A stretch of 61,599 bases of DNA from a virus, in IMG/VR virus record IMGVR_UViG_3300027908_000007; one strand, 5' to 3'. The notes under the pieces were generated by a model, which saw only the letters and a program-made list of their open reading frames with translations, ran no database searches and had not been told where the DNA came from. The position numbers and the translations under genes are program-made. Shown piece by piece: positions 20,706 through 38,153 of the stretch. The stretch's first letter is position 1; every line of letters begins with the position of its first letter.

Positions 20706-21131
20706 ATGTCGAGAACCCAGCAATACGCCGACGACGAGATTCTTGAGGCCTTGCAGCTAACCAAGGGCAAGGTATACGATGCTGCCGACGTTATCGGCTG
20801 TTGTGCCGACACGATTTACGAACGGGCCAAATCCTGTCCAGCCATCCTCACGGCCATGAAGCACGCCAGGGGGAAGTTTCTCGACAAGTGCGAAGGCAAG
20901 CTTGAGGAAGCGGTTGATGCTGGCGAGCAATGGGCGATCAACCTTTCCCTGAAGACGTTGGGCCGCGAGCGTGGCTATTGGGACAAGACAGAGCAACAGC
21001 ACAGCGGTTCCGTCGAGATCAAGACGGTCACTACCGTTCGCCCGTCTACCGCCAAGCCTCTTGACGCTAATGGCTTTCTGGCCAGACAATCCCTAAATGG
21101 AACAAGCAACGGAACAAACGGCCACGGTTGA
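20706..21131 (+). CDS. terminase small subunit candidate
   Basis: N-terminal HTH-like segment and WAINLSLKTLGRERGYW motif, immediately upstream of the large terminase. Confidence 0.55.
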   Translation: MSRTQQYADDEILEALQLTKGKVYDAADVIGCCADTIYERAKSCPAILTAMKHARGKFLDKCEGKLEEAVDAGEQWAINLSLKTLGRERGYWDKTEQQHSGSVEIKTVTTVRPSTAKPLDANGFLARQSLNGTSNGTNGHG

Positions 21132-22374
21132 GCCATTCTACGTTTACCTCCCCAATGGCGACGTTAGGATCAATCTCCACGAAGGGCAGGATGAAGCCGT
21201 CCATTGCCCCGAGAGGTTCATTCTCTTGCTCGCTGGTCGCCAATCAGGCAAGACCTGCACCGGCCCCCTCTGGCTACACAGGGAAATCATGAGGTGTGGT
21301 CCGGGGGACTACCTTTGCGTAGCTCCGCAATTCTCCCTGATGAACAAGAAGGTCTTGCCTGAGTTCATCCGCTACTTCGAGACGATCTACAATCTCGGCA
21401 CCTATCGCTACACCGACCGAATCTTCCAATTCCACGACAAAGAAACCAAAGTCTTTTTCGGGCATGGCGACGATCCTGAGTCTCTCGAATCGGCCACGGC
21501 TAAAGCTGCGTGGCTAGACGAGTGCGGCCAGAAGAGATTCCGCATGTACTCCTGGGAGGCCATCCGGGGACGTCTTGCCTTGCATCGCGGTCGTGTTCTG
21601 ATGACGACGACGCCTTACGACTTGGGATGGCTCAAGAGCGAGATCTACGACCGCTGCCCGCGACCAGGAAATAAGGGAGAGCCAGACTATCGGCTGATTA
21701 ACTTCGATAGCCTGATGAACCCGGCATTCTCGCGGGAGGAATACGAAGACCTGCGAAAGAGCTTGCCTGGCTGGAGATTCCGAATGTTCTACCAAGGTCA
21801 GTTCGAGCGACCGGCCGGGATGATCTACGATTGCTTCGACGAGAAGTTCAACAAATGCCCGCGTTTCCAGATACCTTCAGACTGGAAGCGGTACATGGGC
21901 AATGACTTCGGGGCAGTGAACACGGCAGCCGTATACTTAGCTGAAGATCCAGGGACAAAGATCCTTTACGCCTATCGGGAGTACTGGCACGGAGGCAGAA
22001 CAGCCAAGCAGCACACGGCGGCGATGCTTGACAGGGAGCTGGGCTTGCCGTTGGTTTGTGTAGGCGGTGCCCAGAGCGAAGAGAACTGGCGAGACGAGTT
22101 CAAGGCGGCTGGATTGCCTATTAGGGAGCCGGATATCAAGGAAGTGGAGGTCGGAATAAATCGGGTTTACGGTGAATTCGAGTCGCATTCTCTGGTAATA
22201 TTCGATGATCTAAAGCACACGCTAGAGAACGTGATGAGCTATTCCAGGGAACTAGACGACTTCGGCCAGCCGACAGAGAAGATCGAGGACAAGGAGAAAT
22301 ATCATCTTGCGGACGCCCTTCGCTATGTGGTCGGTTACTTGCGTGGCAAACCTAAACGAGTCTGGGTGAGGTGA
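21097..22374 (+). CDS. terminase large subunit
   Basis: Walker A LLAGRQSGKT, Walker B AWLDECG, C-terminal RNaseH-like nuclease region (GNDFGAVNTAA ... DALRY). Confidence 0.85.
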   Translation: MEQATEQTATVEPFYVYLPNGDVRINLHEGQDEAVHCPERFILLLAGRQSGKTCTGPLWLHREIMRCGPGDYLCVAPQFSLMNKKVLPEFIRYFETIYNLGTYRYTDRIFQFHDKETKVFFGHGDDPESLESATAKAAWLDECGQKRFRMYSWEAIRGRLALHRGRVLMTTTPYDLGWLKSEIYDRCPRPGNKGEPDYRLINFDSLMNPAFSREEYEDLRKSLPGWRFRMFYQGQFERPAGMIYDCFDEKFNKCPRFQIPSDWKRYMGNDFGAVNTAAVYLAEDPGTKILYAYREYWHGGRTAKQHTAAMLDRELGLPLVCVGGAQSEENWRDEFKAAGLPIREPDIKEVEVGINRVYGEFESHSLVIFDDLKHTLENVMSYSRELDDFGQPTEKIEDKEKYHLADALRYVVGYLRGKPKRVWVR

Positions 22375-22936: not shown

Positions 22937-23152
22937 ATGAATGTAGTCGAGTTGATAGCCGATCAAGACGATTGTGCTTTCGACCAACCTTGCCGGTTCG
23001 GCCGTCGCGTGGAATGCCACGCCGTCTACTGCCACAACACGACATGGAAAGACGCTCCAAGGAAGTGTCATCGGTCAGCACAAGATCCAGAGTTCAGGCA
23101 CGAAGCCTGTCCAGGATTCGAGACCAATCCCGCAGCAGAGGCTAACCCATGA
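22937..23152 (+). CDS. small Cys/His-rich protein (71 aa)
   Basis: C-terminal part of ORF 22388..23152, starting at ATG 22937. ATGA-coupled to the portal. Confidence 0.45.
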   Translation: MNVVELIADQDDCAFDQPCRFGRRVECHAVYCHNTTWKDAPRKCHRSAQDPEFRHEACPGFETNPAAEANP

Positions 23153-25440
23153 ACTACATCCCTCGCAGTGCCGCCCGCTCCATGATCCGAGCCGAGCAGA
23201 AACGCCAGGTACGCTCTGCCATCAGAGGCACAGCCACCGGCGAGAAGATCATGGGAGCCCTGATGCCCGGCAGGGGCTACGCCTTCCCTGGGGGATGGTC
23301 GCAGGACCGCATAGCCCAAGTCCAGCACATGAAGGACTGGACAGGAGTTTGCATTGACAAGCTGGCCTCTCTCTGTGCTCAGCTAGTGCCTAACTGTGCA
23401 GCTGTAGTGGTGGGCAATCCCAAGAGTAGGCAGAAGGGCTATAGCCCCTATCGGCAGCAGCTTGACGGTCTGGCCACGGGCGTCCGCAAGATTCAGCGGT
23501 ATGACTGTGCTGGATATAGTTTCTCGAATCATCCCTATCACGCCAAGGCCCTGGGGGTAATCAAGCCAGAGGAAGAGCTAGAACCGCTTGCGTCCCGGCA
23601 TCCGTTACGCAGGCTAATAGAGTCTCCCAACGATTGGGACACGCAGTACGATCACGACTATGAACTGGTGATGTTTCAGTATCTCTGTGGTGTGGCCTAC
23701 GATTGGGCAGTGCCAGAATCGTACCACTGGGAGGATCACAAGGACTTCAGCACGCCGGTAGCCGATGGGCCGTTTGGTGATTATCCGCAAGAGTTGTGGT
23801 GCATACCGTCTCACTGGGTATGGCCGCGTAGTTCTGGTGGATCACTCGTCAGCCCAGAGCATCCTAATGCTGACAAGCTAATCGAGTACTACGAGATACG
23901 TCCTTGGGGTGGATTGGGCACGGCAGGGGTTATCAGAATCCCGCCAGAGCAGATTGTGCGGTACGCCTTCAAGTCGCCTATTAACAAGGTTGACGGCTGG
24001 GCACGCACGCAGATGGGGGCAGCATGGATCGACACGGACGATAGTATAGCTACCTGCCAGCGGTCGATGATGACCAACGGGATCTATCCCAGCTTTTGGC
24101 TGGAGATGGGCGAAGGATTCTCGGATCTGACGGACGACCAGGTAGACCGGGTAGAGGCGAAGATCTATGCCAAGCTCGGAGGGGAGAATCGGTTTGGGAG
24201 GCCGTTCATATCCTCTCAGGGGACCAAGCCTCATCCGCTGGTGTTTCCGCCGAATCAGTATGCCTTTGCTGACTCAGGGGACCAGTCGCGTAACAGGATC
24301 ATCGCCCTGTTTGGTCTTAACCTTCCAGTGCTGGGCATGAGCGAATCCCAGACGTTTGGGTCGGTGCTGGCAAACCTCATGTCGGTGTCGGTGCATACGC
24401 TGAAGCCGCTACTAACGGCGAATGGGCAGACCAAGACGAAGTTCCTGGCACGGTACTTCTCGACGCCACAGCGGCCGCTGAAGGTTTGGTACGACGACCC
24501 GACGCCGATAGATCCGCAGCAATTGAATCTTGATATTTCATGCGACGTGGCGTCCGGGTCGATAGTTCCGAATGAAATAAGGCTTCTGAGAGGACGCCCG
24601 CCATACGAGCACGGAGGAGACGACCCAATTCTGCCGATGGGCAGCATTCCCATGCCCCTCAACACTGGCCAAGACCTCAGCGACCTCGCGGAACTGGTGC
24701 CCTTGCTCGGGAGGCAAGAGAACCCGGCCGCAGAGGAAGAAGAAGCCGAAGCTGGGCTGGGGAGTCCGCAGGTGGAGGAGCCGAATGGCGGGCCGTCTAA
24801 ACGATGGGGAGGCAGGCTCAAGGGATTCAACGAATCCGACCACCCGCGAGGCCAACCGGACAATGCCGGCCAGTTTGGTCCCGCCTCTGGGGTTCCAGAG
24901 TCTTCGAGCGGCAAGCGTCAACCCAAGGAAGACGATCCGGTTAACGGATACTTGGGAGCCTTCAAGGAAGACAAGACGACGGAACCCAAGGAGATGGTCA
25001 AGGAAGCCCGCCAGGCCAATGCTGAACTACGCGACGAAGATTCCAAGTTTCGCATCGTCCCGGATGGCAAGGGAGGCTGGGATGCCAAGCACGTCAACGA
25101 CATTATCGACGACTTCGGTTCTAAGATATGGACTATTCGCGTCCATCCCTTGACAGGTATGCCCGATGCCGGAGATCCAGATTACTTCAAGGACATGGAC
25201 AATCTGGCAGGAGACAGGAGCAGTCAGTCGTATGTTCAAGCGTTCAATGATCCAAACGCGACTAAGGCCACTCAAGAAGACGCAGACAACGCCAATGCCG
25301 AACTAGCCGAAGAAGGCAGCAAGTACAAGCTGGTATTTAGCGACGAGTACGACCTCTGGATAGCAGAACCAGCCAAGCCACAGAAGTCCTACGGCCCTCG
25401 CTCCGCTCTACCCAAGTTCAGCACCAACGGAGTACACTGA
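23149..25440 (+). CDS. portal protein with a ~250-aa C-terminal extension
   Basis: 763-aa ORF downstream of the terminase in canonical position. Its C-terminal third is acidic/low-complexity and carries the DHPRGQPDNAGQFGPASGVP motif. Portal identity rests on position and size only. Confidence 0.65.
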   Translation: MNYIPRSAARSMIRAEQKRQVRSAIRGTATGEKIMGALMPGRGYAFPGGWSQDRIAQVQHMKDWTGVCIDKLASLCAQLVPNCAAVVVGNPKSRQKGYSPYRQQLDGLATGVRKIQRYDCAGYSFSNHPYHAKALGVIKPEEELEPLASRHPLRRLIESPNDWDTQYDHDYELVMFQYLCGVAYDWAVPESYHWEDHKDFSTPVADGPFGDYPQELWCIPSHWVWPRSSGGSLVSPEHPNADKLIEYYEIRPWGGLGTAGVIRIPPEQIVRYAFKSPINKVDGWARTQMGAAWIDTDDSIATCQRSMMTNGIYPSFWLEMGEGFSDLTDDQVDRVEAKIYAKLGGENRFGRPFISSQGTKPHPLVFPPNQYAFADSGDQSRNRIIALFGLNLPVLGMSESQTFGSVLANLMSVSVHTLKPLLTANGQTKTKFLARYFSTPQRPLKVWYDDPTPIDPQQLNLDISCDVASGSIVPNEIRLLRGRPPYEHGGDDPILPMGSIPMPLNTGQDLSDLAELVPLLGRQENPAAEEEEAEAGLGSPQVEEPNGGPSKRWGGRLKGFNESDHPRGQPDNAGQFGPASGVPESSSGKRQPKEDDPVNGYLGAFKEDKTTEPKEMVKEARQANAELRDEDSKFRIVPDGKGGWDAKHVNDIIDDFGSKIWTIRVHPLTGMPDAGDPDYFKDMDNLAGDRSSQSYVQAFNDPNATKATQEDADNANAELAEEGSKYKLVFSDEYDLWIAEPAKPQKSYGPRSALPKFSTNGVH

Positions 25441-27269: not shown

Positions 27270-27466
27270 CGATTGTCAAGAGTTCCAAAATAACGATCCA
27301 AGGAGAGAAAGGAACCGTCAATATATCCTGGGACAGACGCACGGCAGATACCGTAGACGTTGGCCAGATAATTTTGAAAGCCGGAGACTTGGCATCGTTG
27401 CGTAAGGCCATTCGGATAGCGTTTGGCGAAGACGCTTGGCTAACTGAGGAAGACCTCAAGATATGA
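27266..27466 (+). CDS. small protein related to the N-terminus of 26670..27269
   Basis: 66 aa; LRKAIRIAFGEDAW aligns with LKTAIRQFFGDEVW. Confidence 0.5.
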   Translation: MTIVKSSKITIQGEKGTVNISWDRRTADTVDVGQIILKAGDLASLRKAIRIAFGEDAWLTEEDLKI

Positions 27467-28296
27467 CAGCTCTCCTCCAACCAGCCAGCCTCTACCCGCT
27501 GATAATGCGACTTCGGCACATACTGGCGATGCAGCGTGCCGACGTGATGATGCGTCTGCCGGCAGCGATACGCTCTGGTCAGCCGATCTCCCTGGAGCAT
27601 TGGACTAAGCCAATGGCCGACGTGCTAGTTCACGTCATGGGGCCTTACTGGCAGCAAGGATTGCTACGCGGCAGGCGGGAGGTTGCGAGGGTCTTGGATG
27701 GGAGGCCGCTGCCGAGCGTGGCACCGGAGATAGTCGAAAGGAGCATGCGTCAGAAGACGCAACCTAGATATTCCAAGGCGTTGCTGCGAGAGAGAAAGAA
27801 GGACTTCGCGTTGGCCATGTCATCGCCGCGTACCTTCAACTTGCACAATCCGTCGGTTTTGGAAGCCATCGACCGTGCAACTTTTCTCTTCTGCGACACC
27901 ACTAATGCGACCGCGACTCGGGACTTGAATGAAGCCATAGCCAAGCTCCGAATCGAGATTGACCAGGGCGTAGAGGCCGGCGAATCGTTTCGAGACCTTG
28001 GCGATAGAGTGCGGACGCTTTTCGATACGCCGAGAGCGGCACTCATCGCGACACAGGAAAGCTCGCGTGCCCTCAATGGCGGAAGCCTGATTGCCTACGA
28101 GAAGGCTCAATGTGAAGGGTCGGCGTGGTTGGCAAGTACGGCACCATGCCCTATTTGCTGGGATCTCGATGGAGAGGAAAGGCCGTTTGGTGTGCCGTTC
28201 TACGTCGACCCTCGCGGCGGACCCTATGCTACCTGGTATTTTCCTCCAGGGCATCCGTGGTGTTACTGTACGTCAACGCCAGTGCTTGCTCTTTAG
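27463..28296 (+). CDS. MuF / SPP1 gp7-like head morphogenesis protein
   Basis: C-terminal pattern CPICWDLDGE...FPPGHPWCYC, matching the PPxHPNCRC hallmark of the family. Confidence 0.7.
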   Translation: MTALLQPASLYPLIMRLRHILAMQRADVMMRLPAAIRSGQPISLEHWTKPMADVLVHVMGPYWQQGLLRGRREVARVLDGRPLPSVAPEIVERSMRQKTQPRYSKALLRERKKDFALAMSSPRTFNLHNPSVLEAIDRATFLFCDTTNATATRDLNEAIAKLRIEIDQGVEAGESFRDLGDRVRTLFDTPRAALIATQESSRALNGGSLIAYEKAQCEGSAWLASTAPCPICWDLDGEERPFGVPFYVDPRGGPYATWYFPPGHPWCYCTSTPVLAL

Positions 28297-29668: not shown

Positions 29669-29893
29669 TTGAGCATGGGACAATCCATCGATAAACCCGA
29701 CAAGTCAGACTGGTCGGCTCTGGAGACGGACTGTCTCCAGTCAGTCAAGCCTGTCGTTACGTCTACGCCAGATGAGCCAGTGTTGCCTCTAGGCGAGAAG
29801 ATAGTCATGATTGCAGCTACCCGGAGAGATGGGCCTATGCCGGGCTTGCCTCAGACTGCATCGGACGTGCATACGCAGCCGGGGGCGGAATGA
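29669..29893 (+). CDS. hypothetical protein
   Basis: TTG 29669 or ATG 29675; ATGA junction to the protease fusion. Confidence 0.4.
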   Translation: MSMGQSIDKPDKSDWSALETDCLQSVKPVVTSTPDEPVLPLGEKIVMIAATRRDGPMPGLPQTASDVHTQPGAE

Positions 29894-32766
29894 GCCTATC
29901 CGCCCTACATGCTGACATCGCGGCCCGCTATGACCGGCTGAACCAGAGCATCAGCAAGGGTAAGATCAAGCCTGAGCAGGCGGCGGTGTTGTCGGATCGG
30001 TATGCGTGGCCGGTCAGCAAAGACGGCACGCTGGGGATGGGCCAGCATGCGTCAGCCGAGCGGAAGTACATCGACAGCGTAGAGGCGTCCTGCCCGTTCA
30101 TTATCTCGACTCAAGACGAGGATAGCGACGGTGATATTGTTGTCTCCCGTGGAGCTGACCTTAGTCGCTTTGCTCTCAATCCGGTCGTGCTACTTGGTCA
30201 CGGCTCGTACCAAATGCCTATCGGAACAGCCAGGGCAAAGGACGGAACAATCTCCGTTTGGCCCGAAGAGAATCGCGTTAGAGCTAACTGCTATTTCGAT
30301 ATGCCTGATCCTGATTCTGCTGCGGTCTATGGCAAGGTCGAACGGGGCATTCTGAACGCCACTTCCATTTCGTTCTTGCCTCTTCAGGCTCACAAGCGAG
30401 AATACGACAAGGCTCACCATGACGGAATGATGCCGCCGGGGTGGCTGTTCCAGCGGTGGCAGCTCACTGAGTTTTCGATTGTGAGTGTGCCCGCGAATGC
30501 CGGTGCCGTACGGGACTGGCTAGACTCCGACAAGGACTTGAGCCCCAAGCTTCAGAAGGCCCTACAACCGTTCGCGGCCGTCGCTAAAGGCTGCTTTAAT
30601 GGCTACTGTCCGTGTCCGCCATGCGATAAAGCTTGGGACGAAGCCGACCATCCAAGAGGGCAGCCGGAGAATGCTGGGCAGTTTGGTCCGGCGAGTGGAG
30701 TGCCAAGCACGGATAGTGAATCGGCAAAGGTTGCATCCGAAGACTATAAAAATAACGGTACCAAGGCTAAGGCTTTCAAGGAGTGGTTTGGAGACAGCAA
30801 GGTAGTAGATAAAAAAGGCAAGCCTCTTGCGGTCTACCACGGAGCCCAATCAGATTTTGATGAGTTTGATTCTGCAAAAGCCGGATCGAACGCTTCTTTT
30901 GCAGGCAACGGTTTCTATTTTTCCGAGAACGAGAAGATAGCCAGATCCTACTCGTTTGAAGACGGAAAGATCATAGAAGCGTACCTGAAGGTGAAAAATC
31001 CTTTCGACTTTAAAGCCTCGGTTGGCGAAGATGGCCTGAGAGAATTGGCCAAGAAGGTGTCTTCCCTGTTTCAAAAAGAAGGCGTCACCAAAGATCAGCT
31101 TGAGCAAAAATTGCTGGGGGCATTTGGCGTCGACGGCAGTGGCAAAGCAGAGGCAATTAGCGGTTACTTCGTACACAATTCGATAGCCTCTGTCATCGGG
31201 AGCAAGAACGTAAATTCCGTCATCGAAAAGCTCGGCCACGATGGCATAAAGTATAGCTCCATGAATGCCGCAGGAACGCCAAGAGCAAGCAGCAAAGAAA
31301 AAGACTTAGGATTAGTTTGGGTCGCTTTCGGCCCTAAGCAGATAAAATCGGTTGACAACGATGGGACTTTTGACCCTGATAGCCCTAACATCCGAAAGAA
31401 AGCCAAATACGAAAGTCACCTAGGCCAGTTCCTTCATGCCCAGAGAGTCAAAGACATGACAAAGAAACAGAACGCGGCCGTGCTAACCTCTGGCCTGCCG
31501 GGTGCGAAAGCCTGCCACAAAAGCTACTGCGCCTGCAAATCGTGCAAGAGCGTTTGCAAGTCCAGTGTAAATGGCCACTTCATCACGTATTGTTCGTGCG
31601 GGAAAGTCATTGCTCAATGCCGATGCACCAGCAAGGACAAGATCAAGAAAACGATTACGGACGGGTGTTCAGAGTGTAAGCGCTCAAAGGGTCTTCCAGA
31701 GGAGGAAGACGCCGTATCTGGTGCCGAAGCGTCTGGAACGAATCCCGAGCGGCACGAGCATGAGGAAGAAGGGGCAGAGCACGAGAAGACGTTGCAAGAA
31801 TCGGTTGCCGCGAAGATGCCCAAGCTGATGGAGTGCGGCTACACCGAACCGCAGGCGATGTGTCTGGCTGCTCATTTGCACGGCAAGGGTCTGGAAGGCG
31901 AAGACATCACAGGACACGAAGAAGCGGCCAAAGCTCTTGGCTACACCAAGAAGGACGACATGGGTGGCGAAGAGTCCATGTCGCTGAAGAGCTTCGTGAA
32001 GTCCGTCAAGAAAGAAAGCGACTCGGAAGCCCTCGATGAGTCACACGAAGGGGAAACCGAATCCGCCAGCGAAGGCGAAGAAGCGGACGAAGAAGAGGAA
32101 GAGAAGCCGCAATACAAGCCATCCGCCAAGTGCCTTGGTGCGATGCACAACCATATGAAGCTTGCTCACGACTTCTTGAGCAAGGAAATCCCGGTGATGG
32201 ATCATCCCCAGCTATCCAAGGCCATGACTGCCCACGTCAAGGACTTGGAGGGCCACATGGAGAACTACAAGGATCTCGCAGGCAAGTACCATCCCGATCT
32301 CGACTTCGAGAAGATGTGCAAGGATCTCGGTGGCGAAGGTGGAGAAGCCGAAGAAGAATCAAACGAGACTGGTGCTGGCGAGTCCAGCGAAGCATCCTCG
32401 GAAGAAGGAGACGGCCGCAAGACGGACGACGAAAGCCCCGCCGAGAAGGTGCAAGAATACCAGCATCCCAAGGGAGCCAAACGTCGCGTCCAGAAGGCCA
32501 TGATGGATCACGGCTGCGTCAAGGAAGCTGCGGACTACATGGCGGAAGCGTCCAGAGATGCTACAATGCCGCGAACGCACAAAGCGGCGATGTCTCACCA
32601 CTGCTCAGCCCTTACGGGATACTGCAAGGCGATAGAGACAACGCCAGCGGAGCCAGTACGGGAAGGCGACCCGAATGAGGTGCCGCCGGAAGCTATGAAG
32701 AAGGTTGCCGAGCGGTTCGACCAGTTTGCCGATTTGATCTTCCTGAAGACGGGGCAACGGTTCTAA
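29890..32766 (+). CDS. prohead protease (HK97 gp4/S78-like) fused to an ART-like domain, a Cys-rich segment and an acidic scaffold-like C-terminal half
   Basis: The N-terminus reads FIISTQDEDSDGDIV...VVLLGHG...ATSISF...SIVSVPAN. Residues ~295-500 read WFGDSKVVDKKGKPLAVYHGAQSDFDEF...GFYFSENEKIARSY...AYLKVKNP...KQIKSVDNDGTFD. These are followed by a CxxC cluster and E/D-rich coiled regions. Confidence 0.75.
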   Translation: MSLSALHADIAARYDRLNQSISKGKIKPEQAAVLSDRYAWPVSKDGTLGMGQHASAERKYIDSVEASCPFIISTQDEDSDGDIVVSRGADLSRFALNPVVLLGHGSYQMPIGTARAKDGTISVWPEENRVRANCYFDMPDPDSAAVYGKVERGILNATSISFLPLQAHKREYDKAHHDGMMPPGWLFQRWQLTEFSIVSVPANAGAVRDWLDSDKDLSPKLQKALQPFAAVAKGCFNGYCPCPPCDKAWDEADHPRGQPENAGQFGPASGVPSTDSESAKVASEDYKNNGTKAKAFKEWFGDSKVVDKKGKPLAVYHGAQSDFDEFDSAKAGSNASFAGNGFYFSENEKIARSYSFEDGKIIEAYLKVKNPFDFKASVGEDGLRELAKKVSSLFQKEGVTKDQLEQKLLGAFGVDGSGKAEAISGYFVHNSIASVIGSKNVNSVIEKLGHDGIKYSSMNAAGTPRASSKEKDLGLVWVAFGPKQIKSVDNDGTFDPDSPNIRKKAKYESHLGQFLHAQRVKDMTKKQNAAVLTSGLPGAKACHKSYCACKSCKSVCKSSVNGHFITYCSCGKVIAQCRCTSKDKIKKTITDGCSECKRSKGLPEEEDAVSGAEASGTNPERHEHEEEGAEHEKTLQESVAAKMPKLMECGYTEPQAMCLAAHLHGKGLEGEDITGHEEAAKALGYTKKDDMGGEESMSLKSFVKSVKKESDSEALDESHEGETESASEGEEADEEEEEKPQYKPSAKCLGAMHNHMKLAHDFLSKEIPVMDHPQLSKAMTAHVKDLEGHMENYKDLAGKYHPDLDFEKMCKDLGGEGGEAEEESNETGAGESSEASSEEGDGRKTDDESPAEKVQEYQHPKGAKRRVQKAMMDHGCVKEAADYMAEASRDATMPRTHKAAMSHHCSALTGYCKAIETTPAEPVREGDPNEVPPEAMKKVAERFDQFADLIFLKTGQRF

Positions 32767-32957
32767 TGCCGGAAGTTATTGGCTATGGAACGCAGAGGTC
32801 TACAAAGCTTGAGCAGACGGTTCAGGCTTTTCGGGACCAGCTCGTTCAGGCTCAGAAAGAAAAGACTACTGGCCAGATCACGGCTCTGGTAGACTTGGGC
32901 GAAGGCGGGATCAATAGCAGTAAAATCGGAGTGGTCAAAAACGTCCTAACTAAATAG
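32766..32957 (+). CDS. hypothetical protein
   Basis: 63-aa ORF with a TAATG junction. Confidence 0.5.
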   Translation: MPEVIGYGTQRSTKLEQTVQAFRDQLVQAQKEKTTGQITALVDLGEGGINSSKIGVVKNVLTK

Positions 32958-33010
32958 TGGTCCCGTCAAAGCGGGAGTTCATCTCAGCCCTCCGGGGAAT
33001 TGAGCATGAG

Positions 33011-33044
33011 CCTGCGGGAGAAATCTCGCGGGCTTTTTCTTTTC
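33011..33044 (+). terminator. terminator-like or RNA-stabilising hairpin just upstream of the capsid gene
   Basis: CCTGCGGGA (33011-33019), GAAA loop, TCTCGCGGG (33024-32): 9 bp including 2 G:U pairs. Followed by CTTTTTCTTTT. Confidence 0.45.
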
Positions 33045-33055
33045 CTGGAGAACAA

Positions 33056-34474
33056 ATGGCAGCATTTTCCAATCAGACGGCGGTCAAGGACGTAGGCAAA
33101 GACCTCATGGAGAGGTTCGACAAGATCGAGAAGTTCTTTACCGACAAGGCTGAAAAGGAAGTCAAGCAAGCTCCGCGAATGGCCATGTCCAAGTTCGTTC
33201 CGGCGGGGACCGATCCGGGATGGGATCAGGATCACATTCAACGGCTCTCGAAGTCTTACGATCCAGGCAACATCGAACACCTGATGCGGATGAGCAAAGG
33301 TCGCGTCAGCCCGCATGGTTCCGCTATCAAGAAGATGTGCCTCGCTGGGATGCCGACTTATAAGTCTCACTACGAGCAGACGTACGGTGAGCTGTCTCCT
33401 GAAGATCGGGCATACGGTAACGAGCAGTTTGAGCGAGACTGCAAGTTTGTGCCGTGGTACTCGCTGGCCAACAAATCCATCCGCAGCGGGACGGGGGAGA
33501 TCCACAAGGCCAGCAACATGGCCGAGAACTCAGGCATCCTCGGTGGCTATGCCGTTCCTCCTGATTTCAGGAATCAGGTCCAGACGATTCAGGAAGAAGA
33601 GTCTACGATTCTGCCTCGCTGCATGCGGATTCCGCAGACGACCAAGACATCGACTTGGCCCATGCTGGACATCTTCACCAACTACGGAACCGGCAAAAGC
33701 CCTTACGAAGCGAACGTCTTCCAGTCGTGGCAGCCTGAAGCGGCCCTCATCAATCAAACCAATACCCAACTTCGCCAGTTCAATCTAAGCAACTGGGATC
33801 TCGTCACCTATATCGTCATCAGCAACGACCTGTTGCAAGACAACAGCGTTGGCCTGGACACGATCATCACGACCCTGTTGGCGAGTTCGGCAGGCTTCTA
33901 CATCGAATACGCCTTGATGAATGGCCTAGGCAGCAATAGTAGCATGCCCCTTGGTGTGCTTAATGCTCCTTCGACCATCGGCATCGACCGGCAGACCAGC
34001 AACACAATCACAATCTCTGACGTTCTCACGATGTACTCGCGGCTCCAGAGCCGGTCGTGGGATAGCTTCTGCTGGCACGCTCACCAGAGCACGATTCCGG
34101 CCCTTGCGGCACTCGTTAGCAACGCCACCACTGGTCAGTTCGCCTTGCTCGACCCGAACGGCCAGAACGGCATGGGGCCGTTGGCTGGGCGGATGGCTGA
34201 CAAGCTGTTCGGTGGTGCTCCGCTCTACTTCACGCAGACCTGCCAGCAACTAGGCTCGACGGGAGACTTGCGGGCCAACGACTGGAAGCACTACTTCGTA
34301 GGCGAGCGAATGGGGCTTCAGGTTGCTGTCAGCGACCAGTTCTTGTTCACGAATAATCAGATTGTGATTCGGTCGGTTCAAAGATTGGGCGGAGCGCCGT
34401 GGACCCCGACGACCATAACCGATGCACAAGGGTTCACTATTAGCCCATTTGTTTTGCTCGACGTACATTCCTAG
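33056..34474 (+). CDS. major capsid protein, HK97 fold, with a ~170-aa N-terminal (delta-like) domain
   Basis: ATG 33056 follows GGAGAA and the hairpin. Contains GGYAVPPDF, and the C-terminus FTNNQIVIRSVQRLGG is typical of HK97-type MCPs. GTG 32957 is rejected as the start. Confidence 0.75.
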   Translation: MAAFSNQTAVKDVGKDLMERFDKIEKFFTDKAEKEVKQAPRMAMSKFVPAGTDPGWDQDHIQRLSKSYDPGNIEHLMRMSKGRVSPHGSAIKKMCLAGMPTYKSHYEQTYGELSPEDRAYGNEQFERDCKFVPWYSLANKSIRSGTGEIHKASNMAENSGILGGYAVPPDFRNQVQTIQEEESTILPRCMRIPQTTKTSTWPMLDIFTNYGTGKSPYEANVFQSWQPEAALINQTNTQLRQFNLSNWDLVTYIVISNDLLQDNSVGLDTIITTLLASSAGFYIEYALMNGLGSNSSMPLGVLNAPSTIGIDRQTSNTITISDVLTMYSRLQSRSWDSFCWHAHQSTIPALAALVSNATTGQFALLDPNGQNGMGPLAGRMADKLFGGAPLYFTQTCQQLGSTGDLRANDWKHYFVGERMGLQVAVSDQFLFTNNQIVIRSVQRLGGAPWTPTTITDAQGFTISPFVLLDVHS

Positions 34475-34489
34475 GCCACATAAGGACTT

Positions 34490-35563
34490 ATGCCAACATC
34501 GCTACGCGACCACATGCGACGAAGGAAAGCCTCCATCCCGAAAGGATGGACTGGCTTCCTGTCGGCATTGCGTAATAGGCAGCACAAGCAGTTAGCGGAC
34601 ATGGGATCGGTTTTGGTATCGAAAGCATCGGTCCAGAACGAGTCGAGTGGTATCACAGGCGGCTATTCGGTGCCTCCCGATTTCAACCTGATGATCGCGA
34701 CGACCTACGAAGAGGAGTCGTTCTGGTATCAGCGGGCAACCGTGGTGCCGATGCTTAGCCTTGAGACGGCCTTGCCGATTCCTAATGCTTCGGCTCAGAC
34801 GGCTGGTACGGCTCCGTGGTTTGGCGGGATGGATCTAGGCTGGGTCGGGACGCCTATCGCCACTAACACGACGTTCTCGCAAGTCAGGCTGACCGCCAAG
34901 AGCTTGACCGGTGTCATCACGGTATCTAACGACCTCGCGGCGGACATGGGTCCGGGTGGCGACGAGTTCCTCTTTACCATCTTCGCTCGCGGGGCGGCGT
35001 ACTACGAAGAGCTAGCGTTCCTTCAGGGGACTGGAGTAGTCGCGGGAGGGTCTAGTCCTCAGGCTCAGCCTCAGGGGGTAATCAATGCTCCTGGAACGGT
35101 GGTTATTACTCGCAAGACCACGAACCAGATCAATCAGCAGGACGTTAATGGCCTTGCCGCCGCTCTTGCTCCGAAGTCGTGGACGAAGGCGATATGGGTG
35201 TGCAGTCCGACTGCTCTAGCTCAGGTTATGGCCATTACCGGATACGTTCCGAACCAGCAAAATGGCTTCGATACCGACCACGTATCGGCAGCCGGATCGC
35301 TCGCAGGCAGACCGTTGTTTGTGACCGACAAGGTTCCAGCCCTTGGGACGCAAGGTGATCTTGGATTGTACGATCCAAGCCAGTACGTGATCGGTGATAG
35401 GGCTGAACTGATTGTGCAAGCCAGCACAGAGAACAAGTTCACAAACAATCAGACGGTATATCGGATCTGGAGACGCCTGGACGGTACTCCGATCTATGGC
35501 AAGCCAATTACCCTAACGGACGGAGCTACGCAAGTAAGTTCGTTCGTCACTCTGTCCAAATAA
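34490..35563 (+). CDS. second HK97-fold capsid protein paralog
   Basis: GGYSVPPDF...EEES... and the C-terminal FTNNQTVYRIWRRLDG align with the preceding gene product. Confidence 0.7.
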   Translation: MPTSLRDHMRRRKASIPKGWTGFLSALRNRQHKQLADMGSVLVSKASVQNESSGITGGYSVPPDFNLMIATTYEEESFWYQRATVVPMLSLETALPIPNASAQTAGTAPWFGGMDLGWVGTPIATNTTFSQVRLTAKSLTGVITVSNDLAADMGPGGDEFLFTIFARGAAYYEELAFLQGTGVVAGGSSPQAQPQGVINAPGTVVITRKTTNQINQQDVNGLAAALAPKSWTKAIWVCSPTALAQVMAITGYVPNQQNGFDTDHVSAAGSLAGRPLFVTDKVPALGTQGDLGLYDPSQYVIGDRAELIVQASTENKFTNNQTVYRIWRRLDGTPIYGKPITLTDGATQVSSFVTLSK

Positions 35564-36578: not shown

Positions 36579-38153
36579 GTGAGCGAGCAGATTGAAAAAC
36601 CAATTGTCTTCATAGCCCACATCTCTTACGGACTATGCGTGCGGGCGTCAGCAAGGCAAGTAGATTGCCATACGCTCAAACCCGACGACCCCTATCAGCC
36701 AATCAGGTACAACACTGGATTCTCCTTGCTGGCCCATGCGTTTAATGATGCGTGGTGCCAGGCGTTGAATCAACAGAAACTCGGCATGAACATCAAGTAC
36801 TTCGTGATGCTTCATGACGACATCGTTCCTGAGGACTGGTGGGTCCGCCAGCTTATCGACGACATCGAGCCGACCGACTTCGACATGGTTTCCGCTCTGG
36901 TTCCTCTCAAGGACACGTCGGGAGCTTCGAGCACGGCCGTAGACAAGTTCGGCAATAAGCACGAGCAATGGAATCCGTCTCCTGGGGACCAGTATCTCTG
37001 GGAACGTCGAGTCACCATGAAGGAAGCAGCCAAGCTCCCAGCGGTGTTCACAGCGGCAGATTGCGGCTACGCCGATAGGCGTCTCCTAGCGAATACCGGC
37101 TGCTGGATCTGCCGCTTTGATCGCCCCTGGAGGCACGAGACTGACGAGCATGGCAACCTGAAGATGTTCTTCAAGATCGACAACCGCATTCACATGAACA
37201 ACGGCAACTGGACTGCCGATTGCGAACCTGAAGACTGGTTCTTCTCTCGACAACTCCAAAGACTCGGCGGCAAGGTTGCGGTGACTCGAAACGTGAGGCT
37301 GACGCATTACGGGCTAACTCCTTACCCGAACTACGCCAAGTGGGGATGCGATTACGACAAGGCTTTCGCGGAGAACGTCGGCTACACGCCCATCGGTGAA
37401 AAGCAGCCCGACATTAACTTCAGCTATGACTCGACTGAATTCCCAGACGTGCGGGGCTTCCTGAACGACGACGAAGGCAGATTGCTTGCGGAGATTGCCA
37501 AGGATAAGAGCGTTCTGGAGATCGGCTCTTATTGTGGTCGGTCGACGATCTGGATGGCTCGCACGGCGAAATCAGTCCTTGCGGTGGATACCTGGAATGG
37601 CAAAGGCATGGACGGGGAAGACACCCTTGCGGTGTTTACAGAGAACATCTGCCGCCACAAGGTCGCCCACAAGATCGACATTGCCGGGGGCACGATCAAA
37701 GCGACCAGGAAGGCTAACGGCTGGTACGAAGGCTCTCCGCACTACAACCCTGAAGGCTGGCCCTTCCAGTTCATCTTCATTGACGCCGGCCACACCTTCG
37801 AGGAAGTACAATCGGACATTGACGAATCACTCCCGTTGTTGTCCACGGACGGCCTTGTAGCTTTCCACGACTACGCGAGGGCGATAGATCCTGGTGTGAC
37901 TCAGGCGGTAGATTTGTTAATCAAACAGGGTGCGGAAATTGTAGCCCGTGCCGGTACAGTCATTGTTTTGAAGGTGCAAAATGTCAGACGAGAAACAAGA
38001 ACAAGCGGAGAAGGACCGGCAGAAGAACGCCACCTTGGCGGACCTGAAACAAATGGTTTCGGAGCAAGCCAAGAGCATCGAGACGCTGACGCAGCAAGTA
38101 GCATCGTTGCTGGTGAATCGGCAGCCACTTTCTCAGCAGTCGTCTCAGCATGA
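36579..38153 (+). CDS. GT-A glycosyltransferase-like domain fused to a class I SAM-dependent methyltransferase (Methyltransf_24-like)
   Basis: GTG 36579 follows AGGAGG. The N-terminal half has MLHDDIVPEDWW and EDWFFSRQLQRLGGKV. The C-terminal half has VLEIGSYCGRST...FIFIDAGHTFEEV...LVAFHDY. The last ~55 aa look like run-on sequence. Confidence 0.6.
   Translation: MSEQIEKPIVFIAHISYGLCVRASARQVDCHTLKPDDPYQPIRYNTGFSLLAHAFNDAWCQALNQQKLGMNIKYFVMLHDDIVPEDWWVRQLIDDIEPTDFDMVSALVPLKDTSGASSTAVDKFGNKHEQWNPSPGDQYLWERRVTMKEAAKLPAVFTAADCGYADRRLLANTGCWICRFDRPWRHETDEHGNLKMFFKIDNRIHMNNGNWTADCEPEDWFFSRQLQRLGGKVAVTRNVRLTHYGLTPYPNYAKWGCDYDKAFAENVGYTPIGEKQPDINFSYDSTEFPDVRGFLNDDEGRLLAEIAKDKSVLEIGSYCGRSTIWMARTAKSVLAVDTWNGKGMDGEDTLAVFTENICRHKVAHKIDIAGGTIKATRKANGWYEGSPHYNPEGWPFQFIFIDAGHTFEEVQSDIDESLPLLSTDGLVAFHDYARAIDPGVTQAVDLLIKQGAEIVARAGTVIVLKVQNVRRETRTSGEGPAEERHLGGPETNGFGASQEHRDADAASSIVAGESAATFSAVVSA

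Follow-up and report, generated by a model that had tools for sequence, protein, structure and literature searches.

An ADP-ribosyltransferase domain in an internal slot of a prohead protease/scaffold-like polyprotein of an uncultured tailed phage, and its possible delivery from the capsid

The proteins shown experimentally to be injected by phages are few (Alt and IPI of T4, Dar of P1, and vRNAP of N4). Phage-injected proteins act before phage gene expression and are therefore a first line against host defences. T4 Alt carries a short N-terminal capsid-targeting sequence, which the prohead protease gp21 removes. Alt is an ADP-ribosyltransferase (ART) of the R-S-E Alt/VIP2 clade that is carried in the head and injected along with the DNA (PMC5512222). 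A second family, ART-PolyVal, occurs more often than any other modifying domain in phage polyvalent proteins and is predicted to be packaged and injected (Iyer 2017, PMC5512222). An estimated 44% or so of phage ARTs are in head-packaging contexts, and Nudix domains are described as fused to MuF, portal, and a capsid-processing serine peptidase (Iyer 2022, PMC9503650). MuF polymorphic toxins combine a conserved carrier with a variable effector, include ADP-ribosyltransferases among their cargo, and have been proposed to be delivered by phages (Jamet 2017, PMC5576092). Here we describe a 958-residue polyprotein in which an ART-PolyVal domain lies between a prohead protease and a scaffold-like region. 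It is encoded in the window that we analysed, a stretch of 61,599 nucleotides (nt) from an uncultured tailed phage of ~61.6 kb (IMG/VR record IMGVR_UViG_3300027908_000007).

The ART is a cassette: it occupies a slot in a protease/scaffold backbone that is itself conserved. As judged from sequence comparisons, it is probably loaded in the capsid and injected into the next host. The 958-amino-acid (aa) open reading frame (ORF) was present exactly as given in an earlier reading of this DNA (the original prediction). An identical copy of the protein was found on seven metagenome contigs of ~61.5 kb; the three of these that were displayed came from different samples and had different start points on the same genome. 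Therefore, the ORF is not an assembly chimera or artefact, and the window is an essentially complete, circularly permuted phage genome. The parts of the protein are as follows.

29890..32766, + strand: protease/cargo/scaffold-like polyprotein, 958 aa (ORF list; ATG start; start Met shared with homologues).
30061..30534, + strand: prohead serine protease domain of the S78 (HK97 gp4) type, residues ~58-215, catalytic His104/Ser159 (PF04586, phrog_80, tblastn, invariant H104/S159).
30535..30630, + strand: pre-slot linker with an invariant Cys knuckle, KLQKALQPFAAVAKG-C235-FNGY-C240-P-C242-PP-C245, residues 216-247 (invariant alignment columns).
30634..30705, + strand: HPR junction motif W249-DEAD-HPRGQPENAGQFGPASGVP-272, which opens the cargo slot (alignment; recurrence elsewhere).
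30760..31404, + strand: ART-PolyVal ADP-ribosyltransferase domain, residues 291-505 (PF18760, catalytic triad, AlphaFold2 (AF2) model, Foldseek).
31414..31458, + strand: slot-closing junction S509-HLGQFLHAQRVKD-M523, with M523 invariant (slot-bearing relatives only; kept in the empty-slot relative P0002).
31459..31548, + strand: post-slot segment TKKQNAAVLTSGLPGAK-C542-HKSY-C547-A-C549-KS-C552, a second knuckle in which C547, C549, and C552 are invariant (alignment).
31690..32763, + strand: acidic, all-helical region, scaffold-like and possibly capsid-targeting, residues 601-958 (charge, hidden Markov model (HMM), AF2).
32728-32763, + strand: C-terminal tail ending in LIFLKTGQRF (F/Y-x-x-T-G-x-R/K conserved).

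The N-terminal domain belongs to the S78 prohead proteases, as the original prediction had read from the His in LLGHG and the Ser in ATSISF. The Pfam match to Peptidase_S78 (PF04586) was marginal (residues 108-206, 22.1 bits against a cutoff of 21), and the match to the PHROGs family phrog_80, 'head maturation protease', covered residues 77-206 at 1e-13. By tblastn, the N-terminal 250 aa were 29-36% identical to annotated prohead proteases of cultured phages, and His104 and Ser159 were invariant in alignments of 9, 40, and 29 relatives. A PDB sequence search with the whole 958-aa protein and with the family profile found no solved relative.

The protease family is built as a sandwich of a conserved protease, a variable middle, and a conserved C-terminal region. 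An exhaustive search with residues 1-250 identified 7,098 proteins (E≤1e-3); at E≤1e-30 there were 92 clusters, formed at 50% identity. The protease was at or near the N-terminus in almost all of 150 listed family representatives, which were up to 2,121 aa long, and an HMM of the C-terminal region matched 70 family members, always at their C-terminal end, whatever their middle. Among the 150 representatives, the ART was present in the 958-aa protein alone. Residues 601-958 have a net charge of -40, and the AF2 model of this region was all-helical, with a predicted local distance difference test score (pLDDT) of 71, a predicted template modelling score (pTM) of 0.29, and no fixed global fold. 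It has four confident helical modules (about residues 631-690, 741-810, 881-920, and 934-955) separated by disordered acidic linkers. A fold search with this model found no significant structural neighbour. The acidic, helical character and conserved tail agree with the original prediction, and they fit, short of proof, a role as a scaffold or capsid-targeting part.

The domain in the slot has the sequence and the predicted fold of an ART. The match to PF18760 (ART-PolyVal; Pfam) had E=2.2e-23 and 84 bits against a cutoff of 31.2, and extended over residues 307-491 and profile positions 1-136 of 140. The original prediction had named this identity correctly; the Pfam search that it proposed confirmed the family, and modelling with AF2 followed by Foldseek gave a PARP-like ART fold. 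It had named an H-Y-E active site; the triad is instead H-Y-D, consisting of H317 (nt 30838-30840), Y343 (nt 30916-30918), and D451 (nt 31240-31242). Over 46 ART-PolyVal domains these positions were conserved at 98%, 80%, and 100%, respectively, and other family-invariant residues are also kept (W299, F300, S303, K304, G310, P312, P371, G452, Q484, and K486). The active site of the family, which belongs to the Tox-ART-HYD2 clade, has its His on strand 1, Tyr on strand 2, and Asp on strand 5 (Iyer 2017, PMC5512222). In the AF2 model of residues 285-512 (nt 30742-31425; 29 aligned sequences; pLDDT 89.9, pTM 0.87), H317 is on the first strand (E31-35), Y343 is on the second (E58-61), and D451 is at the start of the fifth (E168-173). 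Foldseek against the PDB matched the catalytic domains of PARP2 and PARP1 (probability 0.99-1.0, E about 1e-3), with a TM score of only ~0.35 that is partly owing to a helical insert. Against viral models there were 88 matches at E<1e-3, annotated ART-PolyVal proteins on top, and a search of the PDB with the ART profile gave sub-threshold matches to PARP10 and PARP12. There was no Pfam match to PF03496, the R-S-E family of the Alt/VIP2 clade. Based on these results, the ART fold and the catalytic residues are apparently intact, and enzyme activity is predicted.

The best solved-structure Foldseek match of the ART model was PDB 9k3a chain B (E=3.7e-5, TMq 0.45), from the pre-ejectosome of cyanophage A4. 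This chain is an internal ejection protein of that cyanopodophage and has no sequence-level similarity to the ART. As far as the A4 report was available to us, its authors annotated transglycosylase and M23 domains in gp28, left an alpha+beta domain unassigned, and made no mention of ADP-ribosylation. The structural match hints that this alpha+beta domain might be ART-like.

The contents of the slot varied among close relatives with the same backbone. In an alignment of the nine closest homologues, the fixed parts were the protease (residues 1-215), the linker with its knuckle, the post-slot segment, the acidic region, and the C-terminal tail. The slot opens with the pattern W-x-E-x-D-HPRGQPxNAGQFGP and closes with SHLGQFLHAQRVKDM, and the backbone that follows reads DM523-x-K-x-NA-x-x-L-x-S-x-LPGAK...C547-x-C549-x2-C552. 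There was weak mutual similarity between the pre-slot and post-slot segments. M523 is a candidate nested start for a separate scaffold protein, with a weak GAGAG only, about 9 nt upstream. The alleles of the slot were as follows.

The 958-aa protein: ART.
P0002 (protease 92% identical): slot empty; residues 273-488 absent, both junction peptides kept.
P0003 and P0004: shorter domain.
P0006: 2H phosphoesterase.
P0008: domain without identification.
P0005, P0007, and P0009: no slot.

The shorter domain in P0003 and P0004 was collinear with the ART (GTYWTFSQEEAEGYA versus GNGFYFSENEKIARSY; hhalign E=0.044), without the His segment and the Asp, and is a probable decayed ART. Together with the empty slot of P0002, this domain shows loss and decay within the lineage, as expected if the ART were a functionless passenger, a recently captured or decaying cassette in a tolerant linker. 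That is very unlikely in our judgement: the 958-aa protein retains the complete triad as well as the other family-invariant residues, and it is identical on the seven contigs, with the three displayed coming from different samples.

The motif that opens the slot was found again in the portal, at a position directly behind the portal domain.

23149..25440, + strand: portal, 763 aa (PF04860 at residues 148-478; second HPR motif copy, then a ~180-aa extension).

A six-frame scan of the window gave this one further copy (nt 24826-24897, portal residues 560-583). The two DNA copies differ at synonymous sites; therefore, the peptide is under selection and the copies are not a recent duplication. The ~180-aa C-terminal extension of the portal had no Pfam match. 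Three sister portals (820-982 aa) carry variable modules right behind an HPR-type motif, one of them with two motif-plus-module units; the modules differ and the C-terminal tail, ...SYGPRSALPKFSTNGVH, is common to them. Many polyvalent proteins among the ART homologues have the motif one to four times between domains, and degenerate versions stand before the ART in its closest relatives, which are the MuF and portal fusions P0022 and P0025.

As a separate observation, residues 584-763 of the portal (nt 24898-25440), past the motif, contain two copies of a unit of ~60 aa (ANAELRDEDSKFRIVPDGKGGWDAKH... and ANAELAEEGSKYKLVFSDEYDLWIAE...).

The HPR motif joined portals and other head proteins to effector-type domains in many other viral contigs. 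We counted occurrences with exact DNA scans of IMG/VR and ran Pfam on the matched ORFs. HPRGQP[DE]NAGQFG was found at 13 loci, and the looser HPRGxPxNxGxF in at least 119 viral contig stretches. Carriers among 58 complete motif ORFs were PF06381 portals (12), DUF2213 (8), and a Mu-type portal, a lambda-type portal, and MuF (1 each); in five portal fusions that we inspected, the motif was just C-terminal of the portal domain. Cargo in the same 58 ORFs was ADPrib_exo_Tox (9), topoisomerase IB (8), NUDIX (6), DUF7178 (5), Zeta toxin (4), and Acb1 (2), along with InPase, 2H, and GNAT. The ADPrib_exo_Tox cargo is an R-S-E ART, unrelated to the H-Y-D ART of the 958-aa protein. Among the matches listed, 114 ORFs had an intact 5' end, and in 56 of these the motif was at most 110 aa from the first Met, such that about half of the ORFs listed have it near the N-terminus of stand-alone proteins. 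None of 137 motif ORFs belonged to the protease family of the 958-aa protein. From these distributions we conclude that the motif generally marks modules joined to, or encoded beside, proteins that face the capsid interior, and that the protease as its carrier is peculiar to this phage group.

On five IMG/VR contigs (L047, L105, L073, L039, and L007), arrays of two or three genes in a row, each encoding about 200-450 aa, all have the HPR motif within ~10-35 aa of the first Met; they look like cassettes of separately tagged effectors. A 1,517-aa polyvalent protein (L018:5659-10209; IMG/VR 3300006175_000063) had three HPR motifs and an Acb1 domain (3e-25) directed against the cyclic oligonucleotide-based antiphage signalling system (CBASS). 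This combination points to the possible pre-packaging of anti-CBASS nucleases in capsids.

We considered what the motif might do. By analogy with the capsid-targeting sequence of T4, the HPR motif could serve for cleavage by the protease, for docking, or for both, and it might also have a part in ejection. Tentatively, and with somewhat less than an even chance of being right, we propose that [WF]-x-E-x-x-HPRGQP-x-N-[AK]-G-[QE]-F-G-P-G-x-G is a portable capsid-cargo signal in diverse tailed phages, a functional counterpart of the T4 sequence that would direct procapsid docking, cleavage by the prohead protease, or both, whether it stands at the N-terminus of a separate protein or between modules attached to the portal, MuF, or the prohead protease. 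If so, phages load interchangeable effectors (two unrelated ART clades, topoisomerase IB, NUDIX, Zeta toxin, Acb1, and 2H) into the head, and the slot in the protease/scaffold protein is one of several loading sites for motif cassettes. A targeting or cleavage signal of this kind would also give a sequence rule for spotting packaged effectors in metagenomes, Acb1 and topoisomerase IB included, and a handle for loading chosen proteins into engineered capsids. We did not find the motif described in the accessible literature, including Jamet 2017 and Iyer 2017. A tblastn search of cultured phages and plasmids with the 30-aa motif gave no match at E=10, probably an effect of the short query and the low-complexity filter, and we do not read it as absence; a doubled-motif profile search of a 5.8-billion-protein database gave only 11 short fragments and was uninformative.

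We propose the following route for the ART. The polyprotein would be taken into the procapsid by way of its helical C-terminal region and the tail, the route of HK97-type proteases; HK97 gp4 is reportedly incorporated into the prohead through its C-terminus. The protease would then digest the scaffold and the capsid pro-regions and also cleave the polyprotein, for which the HPR and SHLGQF junctions, or positions close to them, are plausible sites. The ART released in this way (~25 kDa) would stay in the head, exit with the DNA at the next infection, and, like T4 Alt, use host NAD+ to ADP-ribosylate a target in the host, either to aid takeover or to counter a defence system. The reading of the ART as capsid-delivered gains comparative support because the ART fills a polymorphic slot opened by a motif that elsewhere links portals and MuF to effector-type domains. 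For the whole chain, from procapsid entry and cleavage through retention and ejection to ADP-ribosylation in the host, we put the chance at slightly better than even.

Several points weigh against this proposal. Cleavage by the protease at the junction motifs is conjectural. An ART on every copy of the protease/scaffold protein means that many copies have to be kept or expelled, and scaffolds are normally expelled or degraded, such that the ART could go along. The TM score to PARPs is low, as noted above. Sister phages lack the ART (P0002, P0005, P0007, and P0009) or have the decayed-looking copy (P0003 and P0004), and the ART is therefore dispensable. No recognisable antidote (macro domain, ARH, or DarG-like) was found in the genome, which counts only as a lack of positive support; this is expected for a non-toxic takeover enzyme.

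The fusion to parts that, in HK97-type assembly, are normally destroyed or expelled in maturation also raises the possibility that the ART acts late in infection, in the producing cell or the procapsid (on host, capsid, or scaffold proteins or on phage DNA), and is then degraded or expelled and never injected. The H-Y-[DE] clade includes DNA modifiers such as DarT (PMC9503650), and the genome has putative modification genes (methyltransferase, PAPS reductase/DUF3440, sulfotransferase, and glycosyltransferases). However, the same motif ties effector-type domains to portal C-termini and to MuF, which stay in the virion, and the set of cargo (Acb1, NUDIX, topoisomerase IB, Zeta toxin, and ARTs) suits early infection and not assembly. 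Dispensability among the sister phages argues against a morphogenetic role. Based on this evidence, we consider an ART that acts only in the producing cell or the procapsid to be unlikely.

The composition of the cargo bears in addition on what a delivered ART would modify, given that a target is not readable from sequence. Motif-tagged cargo is rich in nucleotide-signal enzymes (NUDIX, 2H, Acb1, and InPase), and the ART superfamily includes NADases and DNA/RNA modifiers (PMC9503650). The domain might thus be delivered as proposed and act on a nucleic acid or small molecule, or consume or alter NAD+-derived immune signals, a scheme that overlaps with the proposed route. The family is nevertheless grouped with protein-modifying ARTs, which include the PARPs and the diphtheria and cholix toxins (Iyer 2017, PMC5512222), and PARP catalytic domains are among the best solved structural matches. 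We therefore give a non-protein substrate a low probability and prefer capsid delivery of an enzyme that modifies a host protein.

The Cys-rich part of the protein is only partly conserved. The original prediction described a Cys knot, and the dense cluster it saw is real (11 Cys in residues 542-596); 'knot' is a misnomer, and only C547, C549, and C552 are conserved in the family. Overlooked at the time was the other invariant knuckle, C235-x4-C240-x-C242-x2-C245, just past the protease. Most of the cluster is supplied by a 41-aa Cys-rich stretch (residues ~554-594) found only in the 958-aa protein, within the following insertion.

31549..31680, + strand: lineage-specific Cys-rich insertion, about residues 554-597, with C556, C568, C570, C577, C579, C593, and C596 (absent from 8 of 8 close relatives).

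The insertion had no Pfam match, and Zn-ribbon-type segments are common across the wider protease family. The Cys clusters look like Zn-knuckle or ribbon types, mostly lineage-specific. In the acidic region, the conserved helices contain many His, Met, and Cys residues that are invariant (LGAMHNHMK, HVKDLEGHMENY, and C810), and the top folds in the search described above, none significant (E>1), were metal-binding helical hairpins (CopM and encapsulated ferritin). Metal binding by this region is a weak lead.

The gene is located among head genes, between the portal and MuF genes and two capsid genes.

21097-22374: TerL, 425 aa (family search).
27463..28296, + strand: MuF-like minor head protein, 277 aa, no cargo appended (PF04233 26.1 bits, below the 29.6 cutoff; PHROG head-morphogenesis matches; position kept in relatives).
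32957-34474 and 34490-35563, + strand: two paralogous HK97-fold major capsid proteins, MCP1 (505 aa) and MCP2 (357 aa) (PF05065, 4e-28 and 3e-29).

The genomes with P0003, P0006, and P0007 share with the window the order TerL, portal, MuF-like protein, protease fusion, small ORF (63 aa in the window), MCP1, MCP2, and methyltransferase protein. MCP1 and MCP2 are 35% identical (E=5e-44), and both are kept in the sister phages. MCP1 alone has an N-terminal extension of ~177 aa, without counterpart in MCP2, that could act as a delta domain. The pair may represent a hexon/penton split like gp23/gp24 of T4, or a capsid protein and an MCP-derived accessory protein, and both are presumed to be substrates and assembly partners of the protease.

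Elsewhere in the genome, a 524-aa protein with a Methyltransf_24 domain (residues 313-432) is encoded at 36579-38153, in the head-tail module just past the capsid genes, and its position is kept in all three sister genomes. In the early/middle region, an aggregated scan of 80 ORFs found a sulfotransferase (2.5e-36), DUF3440 with a 3'-phosphoadenosine 5'-phosphosulfate (PAPS)-reductase domain, a PP-loop ATPase, two glycosyltransferases, a DnaJ domain, a subtilase, and a ResIII/DEAD helicase, a possible toolkit for modification of DNA or protein; there was no integrase or repressor family among the matches. In the sister genome GCA_040384165.1, the large terminase (L004:1053-3260) is 735 aa and has a Hint_2 (intein) domain, which the TerL of the window does not have. 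A search of GTDB genomes for a host or prophage gave no assignment, and close relatives of the phage were one in IMG/VR and none among cultured phages.

The middles of other members of the protease family had contents of their own. In the long middles of 69 members, Pfam found RMF (ribosome modulation factor; 8, best E=1.6e-11), AAA ATPase (7), DUF7895 (6), and Zn-ribbons. Many of these long relatives with an N-terminal protease (P0081-P0172) share a mid-protein K-x-L-x-E-x-SG-x-x-GGY-x-VP that mimics the N-terminus of a mature HK97-type capsid protein (compare ENSGILGGYAVPPDF in MCP1). The consensus 'SGTAGGYTVP' prompted the idea that they are protease/capsid fusions, which we rejected, as Pfam shows no capsid domain in the 69.

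The polyprotein provides a compact test case: one 25-kDa enzyme occupies a delimited slot within a protein essential for assembly, and syntenic genomes supply natural alleles with an empty slot, no slot, a 2H enzyme, or a probable decayed ART.

Fusions or nested genes of protease and scaffold are known in P2 (gpO), Mu (gpI/gpZ), and lambda (gpC/Nu3). Like these and HK97 gp4, the 958-aa protein has an N-terminal protease followed by a C-terminal region, here a putative scaffold or targeting part, and is encoded directly upstream of a capsid gene. None of these systems is known to have an effector enzyme inserted between protease and scaffold. Unlike T4 Alt, a separate R-S-E protein, the ART here is H-Y-D and fused to the protease, and it is not a member of the Alt clade; by analogy, it may work like Alt.

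The protein resembles the polyvalent proteins of Iyer 2017 in having the same ART family (PF18760, H-Y-D), in its location among head genes, in its fusion to a virion structural domain, and in its predicted packaging and injection. Those proteins are large, combine unrelated effector domains, and have an assemblin-like peptidase, when present, at the C-terminus, in contrast to the N-terminal protease and single recognisable, internal effector described here, and the architecture is thus not that of a polyvalent protein sensu Iyer 2017. The carrier is a head protein, as in the head-protein/effector fusions of Iyer 2022 (PMC9503650), except that, in the portions available to us, a peptidase carrier is mentioned for Nudix and not for ARTs. 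Unlike MuF toxins, in which the toxin is C-terminal on MuF, the MuF of this phage has nothing appended, and the variable parts are on the protease and the portal instead. The packaging of ARTs in heads is already an established prediction and head-protein/effector fusions are known (Iyer 2017, 2022), such that a capsid-packaged effector fusion is less novel than the original prediction implied. What appear to be new are a slot inside the protein that separates the protease from the scaffold-like region, the series of alleles of that slot among syntenic phages, and the shared use of the HPR motif as a junction or tag; the available portions of Iyer 2022 (PMC9503650) contain no mention of a protease-scaffold slot, of allelic slot polymorphism, or of the motif.

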